Shown: positions 12,554 through 45,528 of the stretch, in pieces
Layout of the letters: each line of letters starts with the position of its first letter
Position numbering within the stretch: the first letter of the stretch is position 1
From: Polyangia bacterium
GTDB lineage: Bacteria > Myxococcota_A > Polyangia > Palsa-1104 > JAEUJZ01
NCBI GenBank assembly: GCA_044222245.1
Contig: JBGANQ010000054.1
Coordinates: forward strand, 813-64,812
Reading direction: 5' to 3'
DNA length: 64,000 nucleotides
Translations under genes and position numbers: made by a program
Notes under the pieces: model-generated
What the model was told of the DNA's origin: nothing
The model's database searches: none
The model's input: only the letters and a program-made list of their open reading frames with translations

Positions 12554-12710
12554 GCCGCGGCCCCTTGCCCGGGCTGCGCCGCCCGCGCGGGCCGCAGACC
12601 GCCAAGCCGGCCGTGGTCCGCGCGCCCCAGCTATTCGGCCCGCAGCGCGGTGATCGCGGCGGGGCGGCGCCTGCCTCAGGAGCGCGGATCGGACGACTGC
12701 AGGTGCGGGC

Positions 12711-13238
12711 TCAAGTGGTGGTGCAGCGAAAGCGGTGATCCGGGCCGCAGGTGCAGCGCTGAGTGCCGCCGTCCACAGCGGTGCCATCGCAGCTGGCGCA
12801 GCACGGGGCGCCGTCGCGCTGCCGCTCGGGCCGACAGTTTTCGTAGCCGTCGAGCGAGTCGCTGCCGCAGCAGACGCCGCTCTGCTCGGGCTGCAGGCAG
12901 TAGCAGCGTATCTGCCACTCCCAGGTGTCGAGGGTGCAGCCGTTGACCCGCTCGGTAGCGCAGCTGAACAGCGGCTCGGGGTATCCGTAGGGAACGAAGT
13001 TGCAGCTGTCACAGAGCCACTGCCCGCTGTTGCAGCTGCACCGGCTGGTCCCATCCGGCGAGGGGTAGCGGCATACAGTGCCGTCCTTTGCCCCAGCGCA
13101 GCTGCTGCGGCTGTCGGGGATCGCCGCCGGACAGCTGGCCGGCTGGGCGCCTCCGTCGCTGCCCGCGTCGCCCGGGTACGGCTTGGTGGCGCACGAAAAG
13201 AGGCCCACGAGAAGACCCAGTAGCACGGCTTTTTTCAT
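12711..13238 (-). CDS. Cysteine-rich lipoprotein
   Basis: MKKAVLLGLLVGLFSC lipobox, and about 20 further Cys in 160 aa. The ATG at 13236-13238 is chosen inside the longer track ORF. Confidence 0.7.
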   Translation of the reverse strand: MKKAVLLGLLVGLFSCATKPYPGDAGSDGGAQPASCPAAIPDSRSSCAGAKDGTVCRYPSPDGTSRCSCNSGQWLCDSCNFVPYGYPEPLFSCATERVNGCTLDTWEWQIRCYCLQPEQSGVCCGSDSLDGYENCRPERQRDGAPCCASCDGTAVDGGTQRCTCGPDHRFRCTTT

Positions 13239-13352
13239 CCTGACCCTCTTTAGCCAAGGTGGGCTTGGTGCAGAATCGACAGACCCTGAGCGCTGGCTCG
13301 GTGCCAGCATCGACCTGAATCATCCCCGGCGCAAGCTCGCGCGAGTCGCTTC

Positions 13353-31217: not shown

Positions 31218-31704
31218 GAGAGCCGAGCGACCCGGCGGCGGTGCGCTGCGCGAGGTGTGCCTGCTTATCGGCCGCGGCGACGTCATCCTGTGGTCGGATG
31301 CGTCGGCAAGTCCGGTGTGGCTGCCCGACTCGCGCGCCCGCTGGGAGGCAATCTGGCACCACCGCGCCGAGCTGACCGAGATCGTCCACAGTCACCCGGT
31401 GGGCCCGCTCGCCTTCTCGGCCGAGGATGAGACGACGATGGCGGCGCTAGGCGCGGCGCTCGGCGCCGGCCTGGGGTTTGCGGTGGTCGCCCCCGGCGGC
31501 ATGATCCGGCGCCGCTACCCGCCGCGCGCTGGCGATGGGCTCGCGGCGCCGGCGCTTGACACCCAGCTTTTGCCGGCGGCCGAGCCGTGGTGGGCGGCCC
31601 TTTTGCGCCTGGCCTCGGGCATGCGCCCGGAGCCCGAGCCGCCAGACGCGGACCTTGAAGCTGCCTCAGAGCTGCCTGCTTCGCCCCCAAAGACGGAGGA
31701 CTAG
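31210..31704 (+). CDS. JAMM/MPN+ (JAB) metallopeptidase
   Basis: An upstream Glu (ALREV) plus HSHPVGPLAFSAED fit E...HxHx7Sx2D exactly. The ATG at 31210 overlaps the upstream stop by 8 nt. An alternative ATG is at 31198. Confidence 0.8.
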   Translation: MTERAERPGGGALREVCLLIGRGDVILWSDASASPVWLPDSRARWEAIWHHRAELTEIVHSHPVGPLAFSAEDETTMAALGAALGAGLGFAVVAPGGMIRRRYPPRAGDGLAAPALDTQLLPAAEPWWAALLRLASGMRPEPEPPDADLEAASELPASPPKTED

Positions 31705-31845
31705 ATGGCGACGTTGAACATCACCTACAAGTGCTGGCCGGCCCAGACTGAAGGAAGATCACGCCCTTGCGCCGCGGTGCTGCCCGCGCTCCCGCCCGCG
31801 CCGCGGCGCCGCCGACGGGCCCGGGCCGCGCGGCGGTGGATATAG
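31705..31845 (+). pseudogene. 5' stub of the Ubl-like gene, cut by IE-1
   Basis: The ATG immediately follows the JAB stop (TAGATG). MATLNITYK uses normal codons. After 31730 the reading turns into rare-codon and Arg-rich junk, with a stop at 31843-45. Not in the ORF track because it is under 60 aa. Confidence 0.6.
31714..31730 (+). repeat. Direct repeat (att core) of IE-1, left copy
   Basis: TTGaaCATCACCTACAA here versus TTGtcCATCACCTACAA at 34632-34648, which is 15/17 identity including 12 contiguous bases. Both copies are in the same reading frame (L-x-I-T-Y-K/N). Confidence 0.6.
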
Positions 31846-31891
31846 GGAGGATACGACGGGCGTGTTACGATAGCGGCGGGGGGCTCGGGTC

Positions 31892-33001
31892 ATGGGCGAC
31901 CTGGTACGACGGGGGACGAGCTTTTATGTTCGCTATCGCGACGTCGATGGCGTGCGGCGCATGCGCGCCTCGCACCAGCCGACTCGCGAGCTGGCGCGGC
32001 GCTTCCTGGTCGAGATCGAGGCGCGGATCGCCCGCGGCAAGATCGGCATCCCCGAGCCGGCGGCGCCCGCGCCTACGGTGGCCGAGCTGGTCGGCCGCTT
32101 CCTGGCCGAGTATCGCCAGCCGCGGATCAAGGATCTGCAGAAGTATCGCCGGTTTGCCACCAGCAACCTGCGACGGGCGCTGCCGCTGTTGGGCGCGCTG
32201 CGAGCCGACGCCGTAACCGCCGCCGACCTCGATCGCCTGCGCGACCAGCTGGCGCGCCGCTGCGCCCCCGGCTCGGCCGGGCTGACCTTCACGTTCCTCA
32301 AGACCGCCTTCGCGTGGGCGGCGCGCGGCGGCCTGATCGCCCGCAACCCGCTTTACCGGGTGCCGCTGCCGCCGCCGCGCGAGCCCGACATCGAGTACCT
32401 GAGCGCCGACGAGGTGACGGCGCTGCTCGCCGCCGCCGATCGGCGGGCAGCAGCCGGTGGGGTGGCCGAGCGCCTGCTGCGCGGGGCGGTGTACCTGGCG
32501 CTGCACGCCGGCCTGCGCAAGGGCGAGCTGTTCGGGCTGCGCTGGCGCGACCTCGACCTGGAGTCGCGGCGCCTGACGGTGCGTAGCAGCTTCGCCACCA
32601 CCCCCAAGGGCGGCCGGGCCCGTCACCTGCGCATCCCCGCCGTCGTCGTCCCGGTGCTGCTAGAGCTCTGCGGAAAGTGTCCGCAGACGCCGCAGGGGCT
32701 GGTGTTTCCCCGCCGCCACCGCGGCCAGTGGGGGATGTGCGCGACGACCGGCGCGATGCTCGGGCTGCCGGCGCTGCTCGCCGCCGCCGGCTGCCGGCCC
32801 GTGGGCCGCTGCTGGCACGCGCTGCGCCACACCTTCGCGTCGCACTACATCATGCAGGGCGGGAACATCCTGGCGCTGCAGAAGATCCTCGGGCACAGCG
32901 ATCTCCGCATGACCACCATCTACGCCCACCTCGCCCCGGACTTTCTCGGGGCGGAGATGGATCGCCTCAGGTTTCCGCCGCCGGACAAGCTGCCGATCTA
33001 G
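31892..33001 (+). CDS. Tyrosine recombinase/integrase (IE-1)
   Basis: ALHAGLRKGELFGLRW (catalytic R), WHALRHTFASH (HxxR) and LGHSDLRMTTIYAHL (Y). It is a clear paralogue of the integrase at 42040-43146; both begin MGDLVR. Confidence 0.9.
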   Translation: MGDLVRRGTSFYVRYRDVDGVRRMRASHQPTRELARRFLVEIEARIARGKIGIPEPAAPAPTVAELVGRFLAEYRQPRIKDLQKYRRFATSNLRRALPLLGALRADAVTAADLDRLRDQLARRCAPGSAGLTFTFLKTAFAWAARGGLIARNPLYRVPLPPPREPDIEYLSADEVTALLAAADRRAAAGGVAERLLRGAVYLALHAGLRKGELFGLRWRDLDLESRRLTVRSSFATTPKGGRARHLRIPAVVVPVLLELCGKCPQTPQGLVFPRRHRGQWGMCATTGAMLGLPALLAAAGCRPVGRCWHALRHTFASHYIMQGGNILALQKILGHSDLRMTTIYAHLAPDFLGAEMDRLRFPPPDKLPI

Positions 33002-33019
33002 CCGCCGGCGCGCCCGCCG

Positions 33020-33784
33020 CTAGAACCGCCCGCCGACCAGGACGCCGCTGCCGCCGCTCAGGGTGAGGGGGCTTATCGTCAGGCTGTTCTTGGCGTAGAT
33101 CGCCACCCGGGTGTGGGTGGCGGCGCCGACGATCATGAGCGCCAGCCCGCTGGCCTGGACCAGGCCGTCGATCGCGAGCATGGTGCCGCCGAGCTGGCTG
33201 CCGCTGCCCGACAGGTAGCCGAGCTCGAGCCAGGGCCCGATGAGCGGGATGTACAGCGGCCACAGCGCCGAGGCGGTGCCAAACGACGGCCCCGAAGCGG
33301 TGATCGAGTTGCGGACCGGCATGCCGTTTTTGTAGTACAGCGAGTCGGCATAGCTGGCGGTGAGCAGCGCCGTGAGCGACCACGACAGGCCAAGCACGGC
33401 GGCGCCGGCGATGATAAGCCGAGTGCGCGGCCGGGTGACGTAGCGCACCGCGGCGGGCCGGGCCGGGATGAGCGTCGGCTGCGTCCCGAGGTAGGGCTGC
33501 GCCGGATAGTAGGGCTGCGCCGGATAGTAGGGCTGCGCCGGATAGTAGGGCTGACCCGGGTAGCTCGGGGCCGGGTAGCTCGGGGTCGGGTAGTAGGGCT
33601 GGGCCGACTCGGGCGGCGGTGGGTATGCCGGCCCTGCTGGCGGCTGCGCCGGCTCGGTCGGCGGCGACGGCGCGGACTGGGTTACGTACGTGCCGGAGTC
33701 CTGCTGCGCCTCGGCGGAGCTGCAGAGGCTCACTCCCAATCCGACCAGCGTCAGGCTGACTACGATGGCTTTTCGCGCTTGCAT
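33020..33784 (-). CDS. Secreted/membrane protein with a Pro/Tyr-rich repeat region
   Basis: Signal peptide, (PYYPAQ)x3-4 encoded by an 18-bp tandem repeat (~33492-33550), and hydrophobic C-terminal segments. Confidence 0.65.
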   Translation of the reverse strand: MQARKAIVVSLTLVGLGVSLCSSAEAQQDSGTYVTQSAPSPPTEPAQPPAGPAYPPPPESAQPYYPTPSYPAPSYPGQPYYPAQPYYPAQPYYPAQPYLGTQPTLIPARPAAVRYVTRPRTRLIIAGAAVLGLSWSLTALLTASYADSLYYKNGMPVRNSITASGPSFGTASALWPLYIPLIGPWLELGYLSGSGSQLGGTMLAIDGLVQASGLALMIVGAATHTRVAIYAKNSLTISPLTLSGGSGVLVGGRF

Positions 33785-33957
33785 GGGGGGTCCTTGGTGG
33801 AAGTTTAAGGCGGCGCGCTGCGCAGTTTCAGTTTATTTATCGGCCGGCGCGCGATCCAGTGCTTGCCTTTTGTCCGCAAAGTGCAGATTGCTCCGGTGGC
33901 GGCGCGAGCAAAAACTTATAACCGCTGACAACTCAATCAAGTTATGAGCACTGCACC

Positions 33958-34479
33958 ATGACCTTTACCCTCCATGATACCGCCTACCGCACCGATACCC
34001 GGGAAGCCAAGGAGGCCATGTATGCCGACCTGCGCACGCAGCTGCAGGGCCTGCTGCACGGCGAGAGCGACTGGATCGCCAACACCGCCAACTTCAGCTC
34101 CTTGGTCTTTCACAGCGTCCCCGGGCTGAACTGGGCTGGCTTTTATTTCTTGAAGACCGCGGACGAGCTGGTGCTCGGCCCCTTCCAGGGCAAGCCGGCC
34201 TGCATCCGCATCCAGAAGGGCCGCGGCGTCTGCGGCTCGACCGTGGTAAAGCGAGCGCCGATCGTCGTGCCCGACGTGCACGCCTTCCCCGGTCACATCG
34301 CCTGCGACTCCAGCTCGCGCTCGGAGCTGGTGGTGCCCATATTCGCCCGCGGCGAGGTCGTCGGGGTGTTCGATCTGGACAGCCCGCTGCTGGGGCGGTT
34401 TGATGACACCGACGCGCAGGGGGTCCAGTCGCTCGTGCAGCTGCTGGAGCAGACGCTGACGGCGCCGACCAGCCCGTAG
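33958..34479 (+). CDS. msrC: GAF-domain free methionine-(R)-sulfoxide reductase
   Basis: NWAGFYF...LVLGPFQGKPACIRIQKGRGVCG...VPDVHAFPGHIACDSSSRSELVVPI matches the YebR/fRMsr family pattern. Confidence 0.8.
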   Translation: MTFTLHDTAYRTDTREAKEAMYADLRTQLQGLLHGESDWIANTANFSSLVFHSVPGLNWAGFYFLKTADELVLGPFQGKPACIRIQKGRGVCGSTVVKRAPIVVPDVHAFPGHIACDSSSRSELVVPIFARGEVVGVFDLDSPLLGRFDDTDAQGVQSLVQLLEQTLTAPTSP

Positions 34480-34518
34480 TCCGATGACCGTGAGGCTGCA
34501 TCCAGCAGCTTGGTCTAG

Positions 34519-34585
34519 CGATACTAGGAACGATATTAAGAACGATACTAAGAACGATACTAAGAGGGATACAAGATGGATACGG
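34519..34585. repeat. Five and a half tandem 12-bp AT-rich units (CGATACTAAGAA type)
   Basis: cgatactaggaa / cgatattaagaa / cgatactaagaa / cgatactaagag / ggatacaagatg / gatacgg. They lie 47-113 bp inside the right repeat of IE-1. Confidence 0.85.
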
Positions 34586-34631
34586 CGCGGCCGAGACTCG
34601 CGGCGCAGCGACGCGCTGCGCCGGCCAGCGC

Positions 34632-34648
34632 TTGTCCATCACCTACAA
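34632..34648 (+). repeat. Direct repeat (att core) of IE-1, right copy
   Basis: TTGtcCATCACCTACAA; see 31714-31730. Confidence 0.6.
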
Positions 34649-34913
34649 CGGCACCTCGGCCGACTACCCGCAGCCTATAGATGGCGAGCTCTCGGATCGC
34701 GAGCTGCGTCGCATCGGGGAGGAGCTTGTGCGCTCCGGCGACCTGCCCGGCCTGTGGCTCAAGGATCTGCCGCACCGGGTCTTTGAGCAGTTCGTGGTCG
34801 ATCGCATCCACTCGCCCAAGGGCGGCCTGCGGATCTACCTGCGGCCCAAGGTCCCGTTCGGGAACGGACCCGCGCGAGGGTCGTGGCGAGCGCCGCGGCC
34901 CCAGGGGCGCTAG
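34632..34913 (+). CDS. Small Ubl-like (beta-grasp candidate) protein, 3' part of the gene split by IE-1
   Basis: A TTG-initiated ORF. (L)SITYNGTSADYPQP...GGLRIYLRPKVPFG is followed by a 16-aa Arg/Pro tail. The stop is 3 nt before the E1-like ATG. Confidence 0.6.
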   Translation: MSITYNGTSADYPQPIDGELSDRELRRIGEELVRSGDLPGLWLKDLPHRVFEQFVVDRIHSPKGGLRIYLRPKVPFGNGPARGSWRAPRPQGR

Positions 34914-34916
34914 GCG

Positions 34917-35489
34917 ATGCGGCTCCTGTTCTGCGGGGTGGGGGCGCTCGGCTCGACCGCGGTCGTGTTGTGCCGCAGCCTGGGCGTCGAGCTGGCGCTT
35001 TGCGACTGCGACCGCGTGGAGACCAAGAACCTGCACGCCCAGGCGTTCGTCAAGCAGTCGCTGGGCAAGAACAAGGCCGAGGCGCTGAAGCTGCAGCTCG
35101 GGAACTTCTATGGCCTGAAGTGCGAGGCGTTCGGCGTGCGGCTGACCGCGACCAATGTGGACGCGCTGGCCCAGGGGGCGGACCTGCTCATCGACTGCTT
35201 TGACAACCAGGCGAGCCGCCAGCTGCTGGCCGACTACGCCCGCCGCACCGGCAAGCCGCTAGTGCACGCGGCGATGGCGGCCGATGGGCAGTTTGGCCTG
35301 GTGCGGTGGGACGAGCGCTTTGTCGCCGATGCCGAGGACCACGCCGGTCAGGCCACCTGCGAGGGAGGGGCGCACCTGCCGTTTATCGGGCTGCTCGCCG
35401 CGACCCTGGCGCGCGTCATTCAGGACTTTGTCCTGCACGGCCAGCGGCACGACTGCATGGTCGCGCTGCGCTCGGTGACCAGCCAGTAG
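34917..35489 (+). CDS. Minimal E1/ThiF/MoeB-like adenylation-domain protein (190 aa)
   Basis: LLFCGVGALGSTAVVLCRSLGVE-LALCDCDRVETKNL (Rossmann G-x-G-x-x-G plus D-x-D-x-V-E-x-x-N-L), GKNKAEAL, and LLIDCFDN (Mg-binding Asp). The usual NLxRQ Arg is Ala here (NLHAQ). Confidence 0.75.
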   Translation: MRLLFCGVGALGSTAVVLCRSLGVELALCDCDRVETKNLHAQAFVKQSLGKNKAEALKLQLGNFYGLKCEAFGVRLTATNVDALAQGADLLIDCFDNQASRQLLADYARRTGKPLVHAAMAADGQFGLVRWDERFVADAEDHAGQATCEGGAHLPFIGLLAATLARVIQDFVLHGQRHDCMVALRSVTSQ

Positions 35490-35549
35490 GCGTCGGGCGG
35501 GCGCGGCACCGGGAGCTGCCAGCGGCGGTGCCCGAGGGCTGGCCGGCGC

Positions 35550-36410
35550 TCAGCCGGTGGGCGGCCGGGGCGGCGGCAGGCCGTCGCGCAGCGGCGGCAG
35601 GCGGCGCCAGGGGACGCGGCGCTGCGGGACGACAGCGGCGTCGCGCAGCGGCGGCAGGGCGTCCCAGCCGCCGGGGCGGGCGACCGACGGGCTCTGCGGC
35701 GGCTCACCCGGGCGCAGCGGCGGCAGCGGTCCCACGCCGCGCGCAGGCCCCTGGGGCAGCTCGGCCGCGGCGGCGCGCAGCGGCGGCAGGACCTGCCACG
35801 ACACCGCGGTCAGCGCCGCCTCCGACACCGGGCGCAGCGGCGGCAGCTTCTGCCACGGCGTAAGCGCGCTGGGCGGTAGCAGCGGCGGCAGCGCTGGACC
35901 GCTGGCGGGGGCGGGCGTCGCGGCCAGCGGCGGCGCCGGCGGCGCGACCAGGCGCAGCGGCGGCAGCGACTCCCACTTGACCGGGACCCGCGGCGGCGGC
36001 AGCGGTGGCCCCGGGCGCAGCGGCGGCAGCGCCGTCCACGCGACCAGGGCGCGCGGCGGCGGCGGCGGGCTCAGCTCGTCACGCAGCGGCGGCAGCAGCG
36101 CCCACTCCGGGTGCGAGCGGGGCTGCGCCCGCACCGTGCCGAGCCAGGACAGCCCGCGCAGCCCGGGCTGGCGCGAGCGGGCCATCTCCGGCAGCAGGTC
36201 GAGCACCCCCTGCGCCGGCGGCTGCGCCGACTCCATGCGAAACAGGAAATCATCCAGCGTCTGCACGGAGAAGTGCCAGCGATCCTGCTCGGGGGCCGGC
36301 AGCTCGCCGCGCGCCAGGGTGCGCAGGACCACGGTCTTGTCGTCATGCGGCAGCCCCGCCAGGTTGCGACGAAACTGCGGGCTGTAGCGGAACCACTGCT
36401 CGACGTTGGA
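35550..36410 (-). pseudogene. 3' fragment of the gene split by IE-2 (W-x-LPPLR repeat C-terminal domain)
   Basis: The frame is open from the att core: SNVEQW-FRYSPQFRRNLAGLPHDDKTVVLRTLARGELP...ESAQ. About 9 LPPLR-type repeats follow. There is no ATG upstream, and the track ORF starts at an internal GTG (36332). Confidence 0.75.
36392..36410. repeat. Direct repeat (att core) of IE-2, left copy
   Basis: ACCACTGCTCGACgTTGGA here versus ACCACTGCTCGACaTTGGA at 43294-43312 (18/19). Both encode S-N-V-E-Q-W on the minus strand. Confidence 0.8.
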
Positions 36411-36536
36411 GCGCGCGGGCGCGCGCAGCGACGGCAGCGCGCCGGGCAGGGTGGGGATGGTGGTCCAGCTGAGGTCCGGGATCCTCCAGCTGGCAGCGAA
36501 GGCCCTTGCGCGCGAGCGGCGCGGCCGGGCTGGCCG

Positions 36537-38723
36537 CTACGGCCTGGGCTTGGGCCGGGTGAGCATGGACACCGTCTTGACCAGCTCGCTCACGTCCACC
36601 GGCTTGGCGATGTGCGCCTGGAAGCCCGCCTGCAGCGCCTCCTCGGTATCGGCGGTGCGCGCGAAGGCGGTGAGGGCGATCGCCGGGATGAGCTTCTGCC
36701 CCGGGCTCTTGGCCTCGCGAGCGCGCAGCGCCCGCACAAGCTGGTAGCCGTCGCCCTCGGGCATCGCGATGTCGCTGATGAGCACATCGGGCGTAAGCTG
36801 GCGCAGGATCTCCAGCGCCGACGCCCCCGAGCTCGCCGTGATGACCTCGGCCCCGTGCTGGGTCAGGGTGGGCCCGAGGAAGGCCAGCATGTCCGGCTGA
36901 TCATCGACAAGCAGGATCTGCACCCCGCGCAGCGTCGCCTTGAGCTCCGAGGGGACCGGCGGTCGCTCTTTGGGCGGCGCGGAGCTGCTGGGTGGCGCGC
37001 TGGCCCGCTGGTCGCGCGGCAGGTGCACGACGAAGGTGCTGCCGAGCCCCTCGCCGGGGCTCTGGGCCGACACCGAGCCGCCGTGCATCTGCACCAGGTG
37101 GTGCACGATCGCCAGCCCGAGGCCCAGGCCGCCGTGCCGCCGCGAGGTGGTGCCGTCGGCCTGCCGGAAGCGGTCAAAGACATAGGGCAGAAAGTCCGGC
37201 GCGATGCCCTGGCCGGTGTCGGAGATGGTGAGGACTACATGGTGCTGATCGCCGCCCACCCAGACCTCGATGGCGCCGCCGCGGGGGGTGAACTTGGTGG
37301 CGTTGGTAAGCAGGTTCCAGATGACCTGCTGCAGGCGCCCGGCGTCGCCCAGGACCATCTCGGTGCCGCCGAGGAAGGTGGCGCTCAGCTGCAGCCCCTT
37401 GGCCTCGGCGGCCGGGCGCACCGAGTCGATGGCGACGTTTACCACCGGGACCAGGTTGAGCGGCCGCAGCTCGAGCGTGATCTTGCCCGAGACGATGCGC
37501 GAGATGTCGAGGATCTCGTCGATCAGCTTGGCCTGCACGAGCGAGTTGCGCTCGATGACCTCCACTGCGCGCGGGATGATCTCGGGCTTGGGCGAGTCGC
37601 GTAGGAGCCGCGCCCAGCCGAGCACGGCGCTCAGCGGGGTGCGCAGCTCGTGCGATAGGGTGGCCAGGAAGATGTCCTTGGCCTGGTTGGCCGCCTGCGC
37701 CGCGTCGCGGGCCTGGCGCTCGCGCACTAGCAGCTCGGCCTGGGCGCGCTCGGCGCGCTTGCGGTCCATGATGTCGGTCAGGCTGACCACGCAGCCGATG
37801 ATGCGGTTGTCGGCGGCGCGAATCGGCCCGGCGCTGAGCAGCATGTGCAGGGGGCTGCGGCCGCCGTGCAGCTGGAAGATCACCTCGCGCCCGGTGTACC
37901 TTTTGCCCTGCAGGAAATCCTCTACCGTCAGGCGGCTGCCGGTGGCCGGCTCGCGGTCGGCCAGCGTCGACTCGGCCGGCGCCAGATACAGCTGGAACCG
38001 CTCGTCAAACGCCGAGAGCAGCAGGTTGCCCTCGCACAGCGACTGCGCGCACTGGCTGGCGCGGGTGATAAGTCCCGCCTCATTGCAGACAAAGATCGCC
38101 TCGGCTGCCTGATCGAGGATCGAGATCGCCAGGCGCTGCGACTCAAGGACCGCCTGACTGTGCTTCTGCTCGCGCAGATCGGTGACGATCAAGCACGCGC
38201 AGTCCAGGCCATCGACGTTGAGCGGGCTGAAAGACAGAAAGACCGGCAGCACCATGCCTTCGACGACCAGCTGCACCTCGCCCTTGCTGCCCACGCGCAT
38301 CCCGTGCTCGAGCAGCGCCGCGCACAGGGCGCGATCGGCGGGCTGGACAAAGGCTCGCATCTCCAGCCCGATCACCTGCGCCGCCGGCAGACCCACAAGG
38401 CGGGTGAACGCCGGGTTGGCGTACAGGATTCGTCCCTCCGCGCTCAGCGTCACCGCCCCTTCGCTCATCGCCTCGACCAGGACCGCGTAGGGGTGCTCGG
38501 CGCCACTCAGCATGTGGATGCGCGGACCGTGGCGGCTGCTCACCGCCAGAGCATCGATCTCGCCCTCGCGGATCGCCCGCAACAGATCTTCGGCGTCCTG
38601 GAGCCGCGCCCGCATGGAGAGCACTTCCTGCGCCGACAGGTCGATGGACTCAGCGCTCTCGGCAGGCTCGTGCCCAGCCGAGAGCGCCGCTAGCTCGGCT
38701 TCTGATTTACTGGCGGGAGTCAT
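36537..38723 (-). CDS. PAS-PAS hybrid sensor histidine kinase with a C-terminal receiver
   Basis: H-box LATLSHELRTPLSAVLGW, an N/G-box HATPase (NLLTNATKFT...ISDTGQGI...GGLGLGLAIV), and a REC domain (ILLVDDQPDM...VLISDIAMPEGDGY...ALTA). Confidence 0.9.
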   Translation of the reverse strand: MTPASKSEAELAALSAGHEPAESAESIDLSAQEVLSMRARLQDAEDLLRAIREGEIDALAVSSRHGPRIHMLSGAEHPYAVLVEAMSEGAVTLSAEGRILYANPAFTRLVGLPAAQVIGLEMRAFVQPADRALCAALLEHGMRVGSKGEVQLVVEGMVLPVFLSFSPLNVDGLDCACLIVTDLREQKHSQAVLESQRLAISILDQAAEAIFVCNEAGLITRASQCAQSLCEGNLLLSAFDERFQLYLAPAESTLADREPATGSRLTVEDFLQGKRYTGREVIFQLHGGRSPLHMLLSAGPIRAADNRIIGCVVSLTDIMDRKRAERAQAELLVRERQARDAAQAANQAKDIFLATLSHELRTPLSAVLGWARLLRDSPKPEIIPRAVEVIERNSLVQAKLIDEILDISRIVSGKITLELRPLNLVPVVNVAIDSVRPAAEAKGLQLSATFLGGTEMVLGDAGRLQQVIWNLLTNATKFTPRGGAIEVWVGGDQHHVVLTISDTGQGIAPDFLPYVFDRFRQADGTTSRRHGGLGLGLAIVHHLVQMHGGSVSAQSPGEGLGSTFVVHLPRDQRASAPPSSSAPPKERPPVPSELKATLRGVQILLVDDQPDMLAFLGPTLTQHGAEVITASSGASALEILRQLTPDVLISDIAMPEGDGYQLVRALRAREAKSPGQKLIPAIALTAFARTADTEEALQAGFQAHIAKPVDVSELVKTVSMLTRPKPRP

Positions 38724-38772
38724 GGGTTTTCCCTGTCTCGGACTTCTCTGGGCCCTTAGGAGCTAGGCAGCG

Positions 38773-39255
38773 TTATTTCACCAGATGAACCCCGCAGACA
38801 TCGAGCCCGACCAGCACCCGCTCGGTATTGGACAGATCGCCGATGATCTTCTTGATGGGCGAGGGCAGCTTGCGCACCAGGGTGGGAATCGCCACGATCT
38901 GGTCGGTCGCCGCCAGCTGCGGCTTTTGAATCAGATCGATGATCTCAAGCTCGATGGTGTACTTGGTCGCCAGGTGCTCATCGCAGAGCTTCTTCAGGTT
39001 GGCCAGCGCGGCCAGGCTGCGCGGAGTCTGGCCGGCGATGTACAGGCGCAGGGTGACCGCCTCCTTGGGCGCCGCCGCGGCCCCCGCGGACGGCGCCGCG
39101 GGCCCGTCGTCCACCGGCGGCCGGGGAGGGCTGGACTTGGTCGCCGCGGTGCGGGCGCTGCTCGGCCCCTTGACGGCCGCCATCTTATCCGACTTCTTGG
39201 CTGCAGTCTTATCTGCAGCCTTGTCGTTCTTCTTGTCGGTAGTCAAAGATTTCAT
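38773..39255 (-). CDS. kaiB: KaiB with a ~65-aa Lys/Ala/Pro-rich N-terminal extension
   Basis: The core [27 protein letters not shown]...[47 protein letters not shown] is very close to cyanobacterial KaiB. Its ATG overlaps the kaiC stop (ATGA). Confidence 0.9.
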
Positions 39256-41027
39256 GATGCCCGCCTATTCTTCTTGTTCGGGCCTACAGGCGGGGCCTTG
39301 GGCTCATCCCCGATGCTCTCCCGCAGCCGGGCCATTTGCTGGCGCATGGTCTCCTGGGTCTTCTGCGTCTGCTCCGCCTGGGCGAGGAGCTGGGCGGCGC
39401 GGGCCGCCTCGGCCTCATACTCGGCGCGCAGCAGGTCGATCTGATTTTCCAGCGCCTTGCGCCGCTGGCCGAGCGCCGCCTGCTGCCGCTCGATCTCGTA
39501 CTGCTGGGCAAGCGCCTGCGCCCGCTCCTTGGCCTCCTGGGCGATGCGGGCCGAGCCCATGAGCACTCCCTCGCTGCCCAGGTAGGCGTCGATCAGCTCG
39601 ACCCCGCGCTTGGTGATGCGGAACTCGCGGATCTGGTGACTGTGGTCCATGCCGCGGGATTTCAAGATGTACAGGCCGCGATTGCGCTCGCCGTTGGACT
39701 CCAGGTTGCGCAGCAAGATCCAGGTGTCCATGAGCGATGAGGTGCCGACGTCAGTCGAGGCCTCGGCCTGATCGCCGGAGGTGAGGCTGAGAAACAGACT
39801 GGTGATAAGCTCCCCTTTGAGGAAATCGAGCAGCCGGGTGAGGGCCGCCTTGGTCTCGACCATGCTCCCCACTTCCGAGAGGTTGGTGATCGGATCGACG
39901 ATGACGGCGGTGGGCTTGTAGTCGGTGATCTGCTTGTGGATGAGCGCCAGGTGCATCTCCAGCCCGTACATCGTCGGGCGGCTGGCGACGATGCGCAGCA
40001 GATCCTTATCAATCCACTTCTGCAGATCGAGCCCGATCGAGCGCATGTTGCGCACGATCTGCGCCGGCGACTCCTCAAACGCAAAGTAGATGCAGCGCTC
40101 GCCGCGCTGGCAGCAGGCGTCGGCGAACAGCGCCGCCAGGCTGCTCTTGCCGCTGCCGGCGGTGCCCGAGATCAGCACGCTGCTGCCGCGGTAGAAGCCG
40201 CCCTGTCCGAGCATCGAGTCGAGCCGCGCCACGCCGGTCGCGATCCGCTCGCTCGAGGCCCGGTGGTTCAGCGACATCGAGGTAATGGGAAGCACCGAGA
40301 AGCCGGTGTCGCTGATGAGGAACGGATACTCATTGGTGCCGTGGCGGGTGCCGCGGTACTTGACGACTCGCAGGCGCCGCGTCGAGATCTGATCGACGAT
40401 CCGGTGATCGAGCAGAATCACGCAGTCCGAGACATACTCTTCCAGGCCGTGCCGGGTCAGGCTGCCGGCGCCGCGCTCGGCGGTGATGAGCGCCGTGAGG
40501 TGGCGGCTCTTGAGCCAGCCGAACAGCCGGCGCAGCTCGGCGCGGATGGTCGCCTCTGCGGTCAGGCTGGCAAACAGGACCTCCAGGGTATCCAGGACGA
40601 CGCGCTTGGCGCCGATGCTCGACACCGCCGCGTCCAGGCGGATGAACAGTCCCTCCAGATCGTAGTCGCCGGCCTCCTCAAACTCGTTCGGATCCAGGTG
40701 GATGTATTCGACAACGAGGCGCTTCTGCGCAATCAGCGTATCAAGGTCAAAGCCGAGCGAGGCGGCGTTGGCCTTGAGATCATCGGCGGTCTCTTCAAAG
40801 GCGATGAACACGCCAGGCTCGCCGTATTCCATCGCTCCGCGCACCAGAAACTCCATTGAAAACAGAGTCTTGCCGCAGCCGGCGGAGCCGCACACCAGCG
40901 TCGGACGGCCGGCCGGCAGTCCGCCGCCCGTGATCTCATCGAGGCCAGTTACACCCGTTGCCGCCTTGGGGAGAGGAGGGAGCGAATGCGGTCCTTTAGG
41001 CCGCGCCGAAATAGCGGTTTTTCTCAC
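39252..41027 (-). CDS. kaiC: KaiC (double RecA-like ATPase) with a ~70-aa C-terminal coiled-coil extension
   Basis: [14 protein letters not shown], Walker A in both halves (GSAGCGKT and GTAGSGKS), the phospho-site region [12 protein letters not shown], and the tail [56 protein letters not shown]. Confidence 0.9.
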
Positions 41028-41177
41028 AAATTCTCCTCAAGGTCGTCAGGCCATCCAGCGACGCTGGAGTGTAGGGCAACGTCAGTCGAACACACCTATC
41101 GAACCATAATAGCAACATCTACGGCATAAACAACCTCCGTGAGACGTAAAAAGCAGCCTCGCAGGGCTTTCTGTTCC

Positions 41178-41276
41178 GGTCTGGCCGGTCTGGCCGGTCT
41201 GGCTGGTCTGGCCGGTCTGGCTGGTCTGGCCGGTCTGGCCGGTCTGGCCGGTCTGGCCGGTCTGGCCGGTCTGGCT
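41178..41276. repeat. Eleven tandem 9-bp units (GGTCTGGCC, three GGTCTGGCT variants)
   Basis: Counted directly. The array lies 151-249 bp upstream of the kaiC start codon. Confidence 0.9.
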
Positions 41277-41533
41277 CAACTTGGTTCCTCGGCTCGTAGT
41301 GGCCCTAGGGTAAATACTAGCTCAACTCGCAAAGCTGCTCCCTAAAAGAGGCTCCCGCGGCGCCCGGCATTCCCTGCGGGCGGACTCCCAAGCATCTTGA
41401 GGGCTTGAGTGCTTGGGATGTTCAGAGCTTCAAGCTCTGGGGTCTTTGGGAGCGGCCAGGCGACTCGTTTTTTTCTCGACTGCCCGCCGGCGGCCACACA
41501 AAGCTGCGCGGGAAGATTTGTCTTTCTAGATAG

Positions 41534-41560
41534 TGGAAACCACTTGTATAATCGTCGCGC
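41534..41560 (+). promoter_or_regulatory. Putative promoter/operator of the excisionase-like gene (near-leaderless)
   Basis: TATAAT is at 41547-52 with TG immediately upstream. The ATG at 41561 is only 8 nt downstream. The palindrome GTGGAAACCAC (41534-44) sits in the spacer. Confidence 0.35.
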
Positions 41561-41983
41561 ATGGCTCTAAAAAAAGTCATCTCGGACGACACCAGAGTGA
41601 TCGATCTGACTGTCGGCGAGCTCGTGGCGCTGCTTGCGGCGCGGCTGCCTGCCGAGCCTCCCCCGGGCGCCGCGCCGGCCGACTGTCCCGAGGCGCTGCT
41701 CGACACCTGGCAGACCGCGCGCATGCTCGGCATTCACCCGCGCCGCGAGCTTGGGCCCGAGCCACCCGCGGGCACGGCCGAGCATCGACAGTGGCGGCAG
41801 CAGGAGCAGGCGCTGCGCAACGAGGTGGCCCGCCGGCTACAGAGCTGGATGGAGCGGCATCCCCAGGTCGCGCAGCTGGCGATCCGTATGAAGGGCGAGC
41901 GGCGCCGCTACTTCCGGCGGCAGGACATCGCTGCCTACCTCGACCGCGCGATCGCCACCCCGGCCCGCCGCCGCTTCTGCTGA
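41561..41983 (+). CDS. Excisionase/MerR-type HTH-like protein (tentative)
   Basis: LLDTWQTARMLGIHP...RRYFRRQDIAAYLDR resembles excisionase-family DNA-binding domains. It lies near the integrase inside IE-2. Confidence 0.5.
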   Translation: MALKKVISDDTRVIDLTVGELVALLAARLPAEPPPGAAPADCPEALLDTWQTARMLGIHPRRELGPEPPAGTAEHRQWRQQEQALRNEVARRLQSWMERHPQVAQLAIRMKGERRRYFRRQDIAAYLDRAIATPARRRFC

Positions 41984-42039
41984 CCCCGGGCCGGGACGCC
42001 CTGCCGCCAGCTCGCCGCGGGCCCCGAGGCTGCCCGCGC

Positions 42040-43146
42040 TCAGAGCGACAGCCGGTCCATCTCTTCACCGAGAAAATCCGGTGCCAGGTGGGCATACAGC
42101 AGCGTCATCTTGATGTCGGCGTGGCCGAGGATCTTCTGCAAGGTCAGGATGTTCCCTCCCGCCATGACGAAGTGGGAAGCGAAGGTGTGACGCAGCGCGT
42201 GCCACGGGCGGCGCAGCGTGGAGATTCCGAGCTCCGCCAGCAGCTCGGGAAGGCCGAGCATGTCCACCTTGCGGCCAAGGCGCGGGCCGCCGCGACCGGC
42301 CACCGGGAATACCAGCCCCTCCGGGGTCTTTGGGCACAGCTCGCGCCAGGTCTGCAGCAAGGGACACAGCTGGGAAGGAATCCGCAGGTGGCGGCAGTGT
42401 CCGGACTTGGGAGTGGTCCGGTAGGAGCGCGCTACATCGAGGCGCCGGGTCTGCAGATCCAGATCCTGCCAGCGCAGGCCGAGCAGCTCGCCCTTGCGCA
42501 GTCCGGTGCGCACGGTGGTCGCGATCGCGCCGAAGAGCAGCCAGTCGGCGTGCCGCTGCCGGGTGCGGGCGCGCTCCTCGGCGGCGGCGAGCAGGCAGCG
42601 CAGGTCGTCGCGGCCAAGAAACTCCAGCAGGCTCTCGCGCGCCGGGCGCTCGACGCCCAGGCAGGGGTTGGGGCAGCTGATCAGGCCCTCCCGGCGCGCC
42701 CACGAGTACGCGGTGGACAGCGGGCGCAGCGTCGACATCACCGTGTTGGGCTTATAGGTCTCGGCCAGCCGGTCGCGCAGCCGGCGAACGTCGCTGGCCG
42801 CCACGGCGCTGCACAGCCGCTCGCCGAGCTGCGGCAGGATGCGGCGCAGCGCCGACCGCTGCTCGCTGCGATACCGGCCGAGATCCTTGATGCGCGGCCG
42901 CGAGTAGCCGCTCACATAGAGCTCGCACAGCTGGGCGACCGACAGCTCGCGCGGCGGCGGCGCGGCGGCGGGCAGGCCGCACTGGCCGCGCGCCACCCGC
43001 GCCTCGATGTCGACCAGCAAGCGCCGCGCCAGCGCCTTGGTCGGCTGGTGGCTGGCGCGCTGCTTGCGCCGGCCATCGCTGTCGATGTAGCGGACGTACC
43101 AGCCGACAAACTTGCCGTTTTTCTCCTTGCGGACAAGGTCACCCAT
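42040..43146 (-). CDS. Tyrosine recombinase/integrase (IE-2)
   Basis: MGDLVRKEKNGKFVGWYVRY..., VRTGLRKGELLGLRW, WHALRHTFASH and LGHADIKMTLLYAHL. The ATG at 43144-46 is chosen inside the 466-aa track ORF. Paralogue of 31892-33001. Confidence 0.9.
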   Translation of the reverse strand: MGDLVRKEKNGKFVGWYVRYIDSDGRRKQRASHQPTKALARRLLVDIEARVARGQCGLPAAAPPPRELSVAQLCELYVSGYSRPRIKDLGRYRSEQRSALRRILPQLGERLCSAVAASDVRRLRDRLAETYKPNTVMSTLRPLSTAYSWARREGLISCPNPCLGVERPARESLLEFLGRDDLRCLLAAAEERARTRQRHADWLLFGAIATTVRTGLRKGELLGLRWQDLDLQTRRLDVARSYRTTPKSGHCRHLRIPSQLCPLLQTWRELCPKTPEGLVFPVAGRGGPRLGRKVDMLGLPELLAELGISTLRRPWHALRHTFASHFVMAGGNILTLQKILGHADIKMTLLYAHLAPDFLGEEMDRLSL

Positions 43147-43293
43147 GGGTCTGCGCTGTCCCTTCGCGCGGGGTCCGTCCGTGGTCCATGCGGACCTGGG
43201 TGACCTCGCTGGTTCGGTGTAGATAAGGCCCGCCCGGGCCAGCCGGGGAGGGGAGATCGGTGGGGATCCATCTGCACGGATCTGCCCGGCCGC

Positions 43294-43312
43294 ACCACTG
43301 CTCGACATTGGA
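43294..43312. repeat. Direct repeat (att core) of IE-2, right copy
   Basis: ACCACTGCTCGACaTTGGA; see 36392-36410. Confidence 0.8.
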
Positions 43313-44161
43313 CAGATACAGCGTGCGCACCTGGTGGCCGGTGCGGCGGGCGGCGGCGCCAATGGCGATGAGCGTGGTCTCGCCGTGCAGGTCGCCCACC
43401 CGGGCAAAGACCCGGCGGGCCTGCATGAGGGCGCGCACATGCTTGTACAGCTCGGGGTCGGCGACCCAGGTGACCGGGCGGCCGTGCTGGCGCACCTCGC
43501 GCTCGCCGCGCAGGTGGCTGGCGAGCAGACCGCGGTAGCGCAGGAACGTCGGCCACAGGCGCTTGGCCTCGGCCTCCGGCCAGCGCGCCGCCAGCGCCGC
43601 CTTGATCTGGGCGTCCTTGCCCGCGGCGAGCAGCGCGATGAGGTCGGCCGGCGTCTCGGCCTGCGGGATCAGCGCCGCGTAGATCCGGTGCCACTGCACG
43701 ACATCGCCGTCGATGTCGATGAGCCACAGGAGCTCGGCGCCGGCCACCGCGGCCAGGGTGTAGTTCTGGTCGGCGCCGACCCCGACGTAGCCGCCGCCGA
43801 GGTGGCGCAGCGCCGAGAACAGGACATCGTGCCGGCGCTCGTTCGAGCGCAGGAAGTGGATGCGTACGTTGTAGGGCTTCTCCTCGGGCAGCGACTCGAA
43901 GCCCTGCACCACCTCCTGGCCGAGCGGAGGGAGCGACGCCTGCGCTTCGGCGCGGCGGTCGGCGAGCAGCAGCAAGGCGAGCAGCACCCCGAGCGCCGCC
44001 AGCCGCCCCTTGCCGCGGTGCCTGCCGAGCCCAGGGCAGGCAGGGACCCGCGGCGCCCCCCGGCCCGCGCAGCGCGGCGCGGCTTCCCAGCGGGCCCCGG
44101 GTACACCCGCCGGCGAGCGGCTTCCCGCTGTCCCCGGCGCAGGCTGTGTGGGGAGACCCAT
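43294..44161 (-). pseudogene. 5' fragment of the gene split by IE-2
   Basis: The sequence reads well up to ...HQVRTLYLSNVEQW. Downstream of the repeat the track ORF (to 43139) becomes CGRADPCRWIPTDLPSPAGP..., which is element sequence read in frame. Confidence 0.75.
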
Positions 44162-44289
44162 CTTCGCAATAGGCTGCTCGTTAGTTTGAATAAATTCTGT
44201 ATCTTTAGTTACATATACAGATTAATTGGCCTGTTTACCCGGCCGTGCGGTATAGGCGTGCCGTGGACCCCTCGGCGAGCAAGCTGATC

Positions 44290-45528
44290 ATGACCCGCTC
44301 GGTGGACGCCCGCTACATAGATCCGCTGGACCACATCTGGCTGACCGCGGCCGCCGAGCTCGGGCTGCAGGTGCGGCGCTCGCCGCTCGGCTACGCGACC
44401 ACCGATGGCCGCGGCGGGCTGTCGATCGCCCCCGCGCCCGACCTGGATGCCGACGACTGCCTGGCCCAGATCATCCTGCACGAGATCTGCCACGCGCTCG
44501 TCCAGGGCGAGGACAGCTTCGGCCGGCCCGACTGGGGGCTGGCCAACGATGCGCAGAGCGTGCAGTACCAGGGCGATACGGTGCGCGAGCAGGCCTGCCT
44601 GCGCGTGCAGGCGGCGCTGCTGCGGCGCTACGGGCTGCGCCGGCTGCTCGGGCCGACGACCGATTTTCGCCGGTTCTACGACGCGCTGCCGCGCGATCCG
44701 CTGGCCGCGCTGCCCGCGGCGACGCTCGCCGAGCTGACCGGGGCGGCGCCGCGCAGCGGCGTCCCGGCCGACCCGGCCAGCGCGGCGGCAGCGACCCGAG
44801 CGGCGGCCGCTCCCGACCCGGCGCTCGCCCTGGCCGCTGAGGGGCTTGGCCGCGCCGCCCGGCCGCCGTTTTGCAAGCCGCTGCACCAGGCCCTGCGCGC
44901 CACCGCCGAGGTGCACCGGGCCCTGCCCCGGGAGCCGGCGCCGAGCTACGACGCTACCGCCGCCCTGGCGCCGCCCGACGCCGCATCCCCGCCGCTGCCA
45001 CCGCTGCCCGCGCTGTGGCAGCAGGCCCCGGCTCCCGGCCGTCACAAGAGCGGCCTGCCCATGTCCGATGGCATCTTTGCCGCTCCCCCCGGCGCGACCT
45101 GCCAGAGCTGCGCCTACGCCGCGCCGCCGCGCGGTGGCCGCCGGGCCGGTACCTGGCGCTGTCAGCGCACGGCTTCAGACGATGTAGCGGGGCTGGTCAT
45201 CGATCCGCGAGCGGCCGCCTGCGCGCTGCACCAGCCGAGCCTGGACTGCCAGGACTGCGGCGCCTGCTGCCGCCATGCCTACGACCTTGTGCCCCTGGTC
45301 CGCACCGAGCCGGTGGTGCTGCGCTACCCGGCGCTCATCGACCGCCGCGGCAAGCAGCTGTCGATCCGCCGCGATGTCGAGCAGCGGCGCTGCGCCGCCC
45401 TGGCCGGCCCGCCCCTTGGTCCCTACAGCTGCTCGATCTACGACAGCCGTCCTGCGACCTGCAGAGATTTCGCCGCCGGCAGCGTGAGCTGCCTGGAGGC
45501 CCGCCGGCGCGTCGGCTGGGAAGCCTGA
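44290..45528 (+). CDS. Hypothetical protein with an HExxH motif and a C-terminal YkgJ-type (CxxCxxCC) Zn/Fe-S domain
   Basis: IILHEICHALV, and a C-terminal LDCQDCGACCRHAYD...CSIYDSRPATCRDF. The ATG at 44290 is preferred over the GTG at 44245. Confidence 0.7.
   Translation: MTRSVDARYIDPLDHIWLTAAAELGLQVRRSPLGYATTDGRGGLSIAPAPDLDADDCLAQIILHEICHALVQGEDSFGRPDWGLANDAQSVQYQGDTVREQACLRVQAALLRRYGLRRLLGPTTDFRRFYDALPRDPLAALPAATLAELTGAAPRSGVPADPASAAAATRAAAAPDPALALAAEGLGRAARPPFCKPLHQALRATAEVHRALPREPAPSYDATAALAPPDAASPPLPPLPALWQQAPAPGRHKSGLPMSDGIFAAPPGATCQSCAYAAPPRGGRRAGTWRCQRTASDDVAGLVIDPRAAACALHQPSLDCQDCGACCRHAYDLVPLVRTEPVVLRYPALIDRRGKQLSIRRDVEQRRCAALAGPPLGPYSCSIYDSRPATCRDFAAGSVSCLEARRRVGWEA

Follow-up and report, generated by a model that had tools for sequence, protein, structure and literature searches.

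Introduction

Elements that interrupt a gene and can be excised from it again include skin in sigK of Bacillus subtilis, the nifD, fdxN and hupL elements of Anabaena and the comK prophage of Listeria. Here we describe IE-2, an insert that carries a kaiC-kaiB-histidine kinase module and splits a gene of the DUF7790 family in a 64,000-nucleotide stretch of Polyangia DNA (contig JBGANQ010000054.1). This whole stretch is called the window below, and positions are those of the window unless another contig is named. The evidence, which comes from assembled contigs, points to IE-2 being a currently active, small site-specific integrative element with a Kai timer as cargo, a reading to which we assign a probability of about 0.88.

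The closest described Kai system is that of R. sphaeroides. Its KaiC (KaiC-RS) has a C-terminal extension of ~50 aa that forms a coiled coil, carries a Ser-Ser phosphorylation pair instead of Ser-Thr, and works without KaiA as an hourglass driven by ATP/ADP (PMC10076222). An operon of the type found here, kaiC-kaiB-kinase, is present in Bradyrhizobium as BRADO1478-1481 (PMC3899966). Myxobacteria are reported to possess several kaiC homologues, with kaiB being rare (PMC11832031). The view that kaiBC has moved horizontally has a long history and is drawn from phylogenies, a line of work that the citing passage of PMC11832031 traces to Dvornyk 2003. No report of a small integrase element with a Kai module turned up in the searchable literature.

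Results

IE-2 lies between two copies of a 19-bp sequence and splits a DUF7790 gene

An initial annotation of the window had placed the Kai genes in an integrase element bounded by a 19-bp repeat with 18 of 19 positions identical, and both copies were recovered at the coordinates given for them (the cores of attL and attR in Table 1). The window contains exactly two copies of the 19-mer, ACCACTGCTCGAC(G/A)TTGGA, where 0 are expected from sequence shuffles; it is therefore not a common, dispersed repeat. Direct repeats thus flank an insert of 6,902 bp, measured from repeat to repeat, as they do in site-specific integrative elements. The gene order had also been read correctly, as seen from Pfam searches and tandem-repeat finding: hybrid kinase, KaiB, KaiC, a 9-bp tandem repeat, a 140-aa open reading frame (ORF) and a tyrosine integrase. 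The G+C content of IE-2 (60-72%) is somewhat below that of most of its surroundings (about 72-84%).

The flanks of the insert had been proposed to form one interrupted gene of about 575 codons. On the minus strand, the segment 44161..43313 ends in ...HQVRTLYL and the segment 36410..35550 begins with SNVEQWFRYSPQFRRNLAGLPHDDKTVVLRTL. The right flank runs from ...RTLYL into SNVEQW through the repeat, and the left copy re-encodes SNVEQW before continuing with FRYSPQFRRNL... Since the DUF7790 profile passes from positions 2-182 to positions 183-260 with no gap or overlap at the join, the two pieces are contiguous across the repeat, and the proposal stands except for the length, the joined gene having 569 codons. 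When the DUF7790 part of the joined protein was used as the query, full-length homologues of 563, 560 and 516 aa were found (81-89% identity, 98-99% coverage). The two longest of them, P0001 (563 aa) and P0002 (560 aa), are uninterrupted orthologues with 89% identity at 99% query coverage. That the halves are two naturally separate genes is ruled out by the contiguous Pfam profile, by these full-length orthologues and by the protein P0246 described below.

IE-2 splits the gene exactly at an invariant motif, YLSNVEQW. Residues Y282, S284, N285 and E287 do not vary in 40 DUF7790 proteins, down to 32% identity, and nowhere is the family more conserved than in the codons of the core. By aiming at this motif, the element would have a conserved place to land in many hosts.

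In the C-terminal half of the target protein (35550-36100), the unit that codes for the LPPLR repeats, GCGCAGCGGCGGCAG, is present eight times exactly and once as a near copy. A 15-mer at 36423-36437, just inside the insert in the P arm, has one mismatch to this LPPLR-coding unit and is in frame with the downstream gene half. It had been taken to make the left boundary of the element uncertain. The near copy is real, and the doubt about the boundary falls because the empty site in contig L018 and the joined ends in contig L020, both described in the next section, set the boundary at the core. As the 15-mer is not conserved in the P arm of L002, a copy of the element from another lineage, its likeness to the LPPLR unit is probably fortuitous.

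Empty site and joined ends in public data

The 90% cluster to which the truncated protein belongs includes a protein of 569 aa, P0246, which is identical at 569 of 569 positions to the protein obtained by joining the two halves in silico. The metagenome contig that encodes P0246, L018 (run SRR22038624), matches positions 44423..43294 of the window at 1130 of 1130 nt (L018 positions 1-1130) and positions 36410..35527 at 883 of 884 nt. The two alignments overlap by exactly the 19-mer, so that L018 holds a single copy of the core, i.e., attB, which reads TCCAATGTCGAGCAGTGGT. The sole mismatch over the 884 bp is a T/C difference at core position 6. From the identical protein and the near-identical flanks of L018, it follows that the same strain exists without the element.

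The site is also empty in a sister lineage, on the contig of P0002 (L001). There the neighbours are those of the window, in the order CLIPPER-domain protein, FecR, CxxCxxCC protein, DUF7790 gene and ThiF. L001 aligns to 44001..43294 and 36410..34865, and the overlap is again exactly the 19-mer in one copy.

The ends of the element were found joined in contig L020 (run SRR14092371), which is 99.9% identical to positions 41216..36392, that is, to the kinase, the P arm and the core. Past the core, it reads GCGGCCGGGCAGATCCG, the 17 nt of the P' arm that lie beside attL inside the element (43293..43277). L020 therefore consists of P arm, core and P' arm, the arrangement of attP, and a circular-junction sequence is present in public data. 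With attB in L018 and attP in L020, all four att forms exist. An internal attP with joined ends is likewise found in a tandem dimer of a related element (contigs L035/L036, see below).

Core position 6 is T in attB and attL and C in attR and attP. In the L002-type element, the last base of the core is A in attL and T in attR. Because of these core variants, strand exchange must fall within the 12 bp GTCGAGCAGTGG common to all junctions, and the variants fit a single crossover.

Logan contigs stop at characteristic places around the site: L033 and L012 end 17 nt beyond the core, and L021, L034 and L013 end at the last base common to attR and attP. The Logan assemblies presumably come from a k = 31 graph. 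These are the places where a k = 31 path breaks if occupied, empty and joined forms coexist in one sample, which we regard as supporting evidence, not proof. Neither the attP junction nor the P arm plus core was found in the metagenome contig collection; since this collection also lacks the attR that is present in the JGI contigs L031/L032, the result is uninformative.

Table 1. Features of IE-2 and its interrupted target gene, listed from the 5' to the 3' part of the target gene.
Feature	Position in the window	Strand	Basis or remarks
Target gene, 5' part, codons 1-283; DUF7790 family, signal-peptide-like N-terminus	43313..44161	-	PF25046 profile positions 2-182, E 1e-47
attL core, 5' side of target gene	43294..43312		Gene orientation TCCAATGTCGAGCAGTGGT; T at position 6, as in attB
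P' arm, between core and integrase start	43147..43293	-	Alignment of P' arms from five diverged elements, motif search, junctions
Tyrosine integrase, 368 aa	42040..43146	-	PF00589, 79.8 bits (cutoff 27.1); PHROG 1 'integrase', E 2e-60
Conserved 140-aa backbone ORF	41561..41983	+	Conservation beside the integrase
Divergent intergenic region between 140-aa ORF and kaiC	41028..41560	.	Tandem Repeats Finder (TRF)
kaiC, 591 aa, KaiC2 / R. sphaeroides type	39252..41027	-	NCBIfam NF006799, 721 bits (equivalog cutoff 408)
kaiB, 160 aa	38773..39255	-	PF07689, 88.1 bits (cutoff 27); KaiB domain at residues 70-152
Hybrid sensor histidine kinase, 728 aa	36537..38723	-	Pfam: PAS, HisKA, HATPase_c, receiver
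P arm, between kinase stop and core	36411..36536	-	Motif search, arm alignment
attR core, 3' side of target gene	36392..36410		Gene orientation TCCAACGTCGAGCAGTGGT; C at position 6, as in attP contig L020
Target gene, 3' part: rest of DUF7790 domain, then ~10 LPPLR-type repeats	35550..36391	-	Pfam profile positions 183-260, read from 36410

Recombination genes and attachment-site arms

The integrase starts with an ATG 147 nt from the core (148 bp in the initial annotation). The solved structures closest to it are the integrases of P2 (5DOR/5C6K) and HP1 (1AIH). The catalytic residues HxxR...H...Y are retained, and the C-terminal motif WHALRHTFASHF...LGHADIKMTLLYAH aligns with both P2 and HP1 integrases; the first catalytic Arg (TGLRKGE) was read from the sequence, not from a structural alignment. 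A phage database contains only distant, P2-like integrases with at most 32% identity, and a scan of IMG/VR with the integrase gave no relatives. Given the low identity in the phage database, an origin from a known myxophage is unsupported. No capsid, terminase, replication or packaging genes were found in the 6.9 kb with Pfam and PHROG profiles; we rejected a prophage, a satellite, and an integrative and conjugative element (ICE) because the genes that define them were not found. The window contains no tRNA.

When IE-2 is integrated, the truncated 5' ORF of the target gene continues into the element up to a TGA at 43141-43139, where it overlaps the integrase ATG (ATGGGTGA). The overlap measures 8 nt (43139-43146) and recurs in L002 (6235-6242) and in the related element L038 (11523-11530); it is absent in L006 and L040/L041, two other relatives. 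The integrated integrase may therefore be read from the transcript of the target gene.

Both arms contain the motif TGGACCAC. In the P' arm, it stands at 43181-43188 with a degenerate second copy after it; beside the core lies an imperfect inverted repeat (ATCNGTG...CCACCGAT). In the P arm, it stands at 36460-36467 with a degenerate copy before it, and the last 67 bp of this arm align with the L002 element. The tandem TGGACCAC-type motif is kept in P and P' of every element type, the arms being otherwise diverged, and these repeats are putative arm-binding sites of the integrase.

The 140-aa ORF had been called excisionase-like. Every element type in which it was found, at 59-86% identity, has it beside the integrase, and it was not detected in L004/L005; only 19 protein clusters among 5.8 billion match it. 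The product scores 19 bits (E 1.5e-3) with HTH_17, below the cutoff of 27, and has no PHROG or NCBIfam match and no family assignment. Its alignment resembles a winged helix of the MerR/Xis type split by a helical insertion. In an AlphaFold model (predicted local distance difference test score of 70), the best folds are BldC and RacA (E 0.6) and the CarA N-domain, none of them significant. Thus, what holds of the earlier label is a conserved ORF beside the integrase, the name itself resting on the sub-threshold HTH_17 match and the non-significant BldC/RacA-like fold. A role as recombination directionality factor (excisionase) or regulator is plausible. The backbone formed by the integrase and the 140-aa protein appears to be previously undescribed in Myxococcota.

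The Kai cargo

KaiC of IE-2 matches PF06745 twice (E 7e-110), corresponding to two RecA-like KaiC domains. Both Walker A motifs, both EE pairs, a Ser-Ser phosphosite and a C-terminal extension of the coiled-coil type are present. Over residues 20-560, the protein is ~65% identical (E 3e-201) to KaiC-RS (PDB 8DBA/8FWI). Its GTSSLMD segment aligns with GLSSLMD of KaiC-RS (S413/S414) and with the EE mutant 8FWI. The alignment to 8DBA runs on through the tail, residues 503-560, and the coiled coil is assigned by this alignment. The start of kaiC, a GTG at 41027 with the ribosome-binding site GAGGAG upstream, is supported by the alignment with KaiC-RS. In the JGI annotation (P0249-P0251, from L030-L032), the same kaiC is called as 534 aa, from an internal Met past the first Walker A motif.

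The ATG of kaiB overlaps the kaiC stop codon (ATGA). With NCBIfam, KaiB scores 91.9 where the equivalog cutoff is 110 and 86.4 where it is 145, below both; in the PDB, KaiB of R. sphaeroides (8FWJ_M) matches it best. In both versions of the element (160 and 161 aa), it carries a low-complexity N-terminal extension of roughly 65 aa, rich in Lys, Ala and Pro. By sequence, the kaiB product is a KaiB-domain protein closest to that of R. sphaeroides. No kaiA-like gene was found in the element by Pfam scan.

The region between kaiC and the divergent 140-aa ORF contains a 9-bp tandem repeat, CCGGTCTGG, in 11.1 copies at 41176-41275 (TRF). The number of copies varies: in L030, which is 99.4% identical, the repeat is 45 bp, or five units, shorter, and in the L002-type element it is absent. 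Many Logan contigs break at this repeat. No Rfam family matched in the region 31000-45000, the tandem-repeat region included.

All KaiC relatives at 86-99% identity belong to copies of this element. The closest KaiC outside it (72% identity) is encoded at locus L011 of a Polyangia chromosome, GCA_046351595.1. There, kaiC, kaiB (89 aa) and a PAS hybrid kinase gene form an operon surrounded by housekeeping genes; response regulators are encoded nearby, and there is no integrase gene. Most likely, the Kai module was captured from such a chromosomal kaiC-kaiB-kinase operon of Polyangia.

Copies of the Kai version and their history

The same element occupies the same site in another lineage, represented by L002/L003, with flanks 82.5-84% identical to the window. 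Contigs L012-L017, from several runs, are further copies of the L002 variant, and the JGI contigs L030-L032 are about 99.4% identical copies of the arrangement in the window. The Kai-bearing version has been seen in two sister lineages only. L001, which is empty, and L002, which is occupied, are ~90% identical to each other, and each is ~83-85% identical to the window. It thus follows that occupancy does not follow the tree, and the history was either one gain with a precise loss or two gains; the synonymous divergence given in the Discussion favours an old residence with loss or excision.

All genes of the element are under purifying selection, with ratios of nonsynonymous to synonymous divergence (dN/dS) between the window and L002 of 0.18 for the integrase gene, 0.19 for the 140-aa ORF, 0.15 for kaiC, 0.24 for kaiB and 0.23 for the kinase gene. 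L002 also has a 430-aa backbone ORF beside attR (12548-13840), as does L038 (4862-6154). The window element is without it and has ~80 bp (36477-36558) in its place. The 430-aa ORF has no Pfam match and matches an MIDAS adhesin and CglD weakly in NCBIfam.

Related elements with other cargo

Relatives were collected by scanning one genome per species with the integrase and by looking up homologues of the 140-aa ORF. In metagenome-assembled genomes of more distant Myxococcales/Polyangia, the backbone was found at the same SNVEQW codons of DUF7790 genes, with different cargo. The element of L006/L007 (integrase 68% identical) measures 6,350 bp between perfect 19-bp repeats and carries the genes of an FG-GAP repeat protein and a 730-aa protein. 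That of L038 (83%; 7,030 bp) carries an LanM-type lanthipeptide synthetase and a 63-aa ORF. In L040/L041 (72%), the cargo comprises a caspase-FGE fusion, an SEC-C protein and others; attR was not found in these contigs. L035-L037 (70%) contain an 18.8-kb element with a biosynthetic-looking cluster, which in L035/L036 (JGI 3300060284 Ga0590114_0000304, about 116,700-135,800) is present as a perfect tandem dimer. Here, the gene order differs, the cargo lying between the integrase and a 142-aa ORF.

When L002 was compared with L038 by blastn, the backbone was homologous on both sides, and only positions 7832-12591 of L002, the kaiC-kaiB-kinase segment, were replaced. Judging from these sequences, IE-2 would belong to an active family of elements that swap cargo on a common backbone.

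Neighbourhood of IE-2

A second, paralogous tyrosine integrase is encoded at 31892-33001 (+) and is 53% identical to that of IE-2. It lies in the region 31705-34913, presumably the IE-1 of the initial annotation, in a stretch of lower G+C that adjoins a ThiF-family gene. A candidate core, CATCACCTACAA, has one copy at 31719-31730, which precedes the integrase start by ~160 nt in the same geometry as in IE-2, and a second copy at 34637-34648. IE-1 may split a gene of roughly 93 aa (MATLNITY / NGTSADYPQ...) just upstream of ThiF; an empty site was not found for it. Its cargo consists of a GAF-domain ORF and a 254-aa repeat-containing ORF, inside which 4-5 copies of an 18-bp tandem repeat (GGCTGCGCCGGATAGTAG-like) lie at 33477-33560.

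The ThiF-family gene (34917-35489) is highly conserved, with 95% amino acid identity among the window, L001 and L002. In L001 and L002, it is followed by asparaginase and kinase genes, which are missing in the window, and L038 has no ThiF-family gene between the target gene and the asparaginase gene.

Discussion

We propose the following course of events. The P2/HP1-like tyrosine integrase would recombine attP of the element with attB of the host, where a DUF7790 gene encodes its invariant S-N-x-E-x-W motif, and exchange would take place within GTCGAGCAGTGG. Integration would split the gene, and excision would restore it exactly, the 140-aa winged-helix-like protein presumably acting as the directionality factor. 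The slot between the 140-aa ORF and the attR end would accept cargo, in the present case an operon of kaiC, kaiB and a hybrid histidine kinase gene that belongs to the KaiA-independent type. From its homology to the R. sphaeroides system, the operon should encode an hourglass timer that the ATP/ADP ratio drives, in which KaiC would autophosphorylate by means of its coiled-coil tail and KaiB would speed up ATPase activity and dephosphorylation. Through the PAS hybrid kinase, the timer is presumably linked to the phosphorelays of the host, on the output or the input side. IE-2 would integrate and excise by itself, and its movement between cells would depend on a helper element, transformation or some other route.

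Several observations weigh against this reading or limit it. The activity of IE-2 is deduced from assembled contigs. The attP of L020 extends only 17 nt past the core. A free circle could have given rise to it, and equally a tandem integrated dimer of the kind seen in L035/L036; both are products of the integrase. The assignment of the 140-aa ORF as directionality factor is weak. A scan for σ70 promoters identified nothing, and terminator matches were at chance level. The element has no response regulator, and a function of the Kai genes as clock or timer is suggested by homology only. The genes of integrative conjugative or mobilizable elements (relaxase, coupling protein, type IV secretion) were not found in a Pfam, PHROG and NCBIfam scan of all ORFs of the insert, which gave the integrase, the 140-aa ORF, KaiC, KaiB and the kinase and nothing else; the origin of transfer (oriT) was not searched for as DNA. 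Finally, no transfer of the Kai version between lineages was found, and between the window and L002 the synonymous divergence (dS) of the element, 0.34-0.49, is not below that of the flanks, 0.21-0.37. The Kai version may thus have been resident for a long time, alternately integrated and excised, and not have arrived recently. Since element dS is similar to, or higher than, that of the flanks, a recent transfer between lineages fits less well than a long residence in which the element was repeatedly excised and re-integrated; such residence would keep both halves of the split gene intact. The initial annotation had seen in IE-2 a self-integrating cassette that gives Kai timers a concrete route for horizontal spread. 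The cassette, its main claim, is borne out by attB in L018, attP in L020 and a family at the same site, and the conditions that it had named for its own refutation turned out in its favour. The route is only half borne out: integration and excision are supported, transfer genes were not found, the Kai version was seen in two sister lineages only, and the dS values fit long residence better than recent transfer.

Given that integration functions are present and that transfer, replication and packaging genes were not found with Pfam, PHROG and NCBIfam, IE-2 might be a helper-dependent satellite or mobilizable island that a co-resident phage, ICE or other vehicle moves between cells. This has a real chance of being true, although we consider it less probable than not by a clear distance. 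Cargo modules are swapped on one backbone. Hosts that share this conserved backbone have only about 54% identity in the N-terminal part of DUF7790, which calls for spread or for very long co-residence. Against such a vehicle stand the divergence of the element, which tracks that of the host where it can be measured, the missing IMG/VR relatives and the low identity to phage-database integrases; moreover, no relaxase, cos/pac site or terS-like gene was found, with the limit on oriT noted above. Unlikely, and a refinement of the active-element explanation rather than a strict alternative to it, is a programmed gene-interrupting switch, in which regulated excision turns on the DUF7790 gene with the Kai cargo linked to it reciprocally. 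The insertion lies mid-gene and supplies no replacement 3' end, and several samples seem to contain occupied and empty forms together. Both halves of the gene are intact and constrained in lineages at a dS of about 0.27, which suggests that the gene is regularly restored. The co-orientation of the integrase with the truncated ORF and their 8-nt overlap in the window, L002 and L038 mean that expression of the target gene could drive that of the integrase; yet L006 and L040/L041 do not have this overlap. The gene is uninterrupted in many lineages, no evidence ties excision to development or to any condition, and the varied cargo resembles the biology of selfish or accessory elements and not a host-controlled switch.

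The remaining explanations would make IE-2 inactive or unreal. An immobile relic, i.e., an old fixed island with a fossil repeat whose flanking halves are now separate genes or pseudogenes, would account for an element dS as large as that of the flanks and for the same insertion in two lineages. It is contradicted by the empty site with identical flanks in the same strain, and the attP junction of L020, the intact integrase and 140-aa ORF under purifying selection and the empty state of L001 beside the occupied L002 leave it very little room. Slighter still, to the point of being negligible, is the chance that assembly or binning misjoined a Kai fragment of another organism at a short shared sequence. 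The assembly is of metagenome type and short repeats can cause misjoins, but the junctions recur in assemblies made independently in different projects with different assemblers, namely in the NCBI contig, in JGI 3300045365 and 3300045290, in Logan SRR34280931, SRR23702531, SRR14092371 and others, and also in diverged relatives.

If IE-2 is an active integrative element, the vehicle of a Kai module, its att sites, its empty site and its joined ends are all visible in sequence. The empty and occupied forms of the same strain mean that a predicted KaiA-independent timer is present or absent between otherwise identical strains. This would provide a natural isogenic pair in which to study the role of a KaiBC hourglass in a non-photosynthetic predator or soil bacterium, and the compact 6.9-kb cassette could be moved experimentally. 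The backbone would target an invariant motif of a conserved gene and exchange cargo modules. Pushed further, in a reading that is unlikely, IE-2 might be a reversible switch with its integrase transcribed from the target promoter and translationally coupled to the truncated ORF, to which the conserved ATGGGTGA overlap points, in Polyangia that possess a family of plug-in cargo platforms aimed at DUF7790 genes. Cells would then alternate between a state with the secreted DUF7790 protein off and the Kai timer present and a state with DUF7790 on and the element circular or lost. Timer, lanthipeptide, biosynthetic-cluster and caspase-like modules would be distributed within populations in this manner, and timekeeping would be an accessory, strain-variable trait.

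As an island with an integrase and att sites, IE-2 is of a classical kind; its family, the intragenic target and the clock cargo appear to be undescribed in the searchable literature. With elements of the lambda, P2 and HP1 type, it shares a tyrosine recombinase with HxxR...H...Y, a short core in four att forms, motifs in both arms and a small DNA-binding-like protein beside the integrase. It differs from them in its size of 6.9 kb without phage genes, in an integrase at most 32% identical to those in the phage database, in a small protein that belongs to no described family and in an intragenic target that the element does not repair. The mid-gene position and the precise excision that recreates the ORF, as seen from P0246 and L018, are those of skin, nifD and comK-type elements. 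Unlike these, IE-2 belongs to a variable-cargo family that occurs at the same motif in several host lineages, with no known link to differentiation; its recombinase is not assigned to the skin or nifD systems, a separation made without comparison to XisA or SpoIVCA.

The Kai genes resemble those of the R. sphaeroides timer (PMC10076222; 8DBA, 8FWI, 8FWJ) in the ATPase domains, the Ser-Ser pair, the C-terminal extension, KaiB and the lack of kaiA. They differ in the 65-aa N-terminal extension of KaiB and in the PAS hybrid kinase within the operon. In C. sphaeroides 2.4.1, the genes lie on a 114-kb plasmid, whereas those of IE-2 lie on a small integrative element. The chromosomal operons of Proteobacteria and Myxococcota (BRADO1478-1481, PMC3899966; L011) contain the same three genes in the same order; however, they stand in housekeeping surroundings with response-regulator genes nearby and no integrase, and KaiB of L011 has 89 aa without the extension. 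Kai modules on accessory DNA are also known from plasmids of Cereibacter, Rhizobium, Sinorhizobium and Falsirhodobacter (16 PLSDB records with plasmid-borne kaiC, KaiC 35-60% identical). Those replicons range from 114 kb to 1.5 Mb and are mostly typed as non-mobilizable, whereas IE-2 is a minimal integrase cassette of which both the empty site and the joined ends are found.

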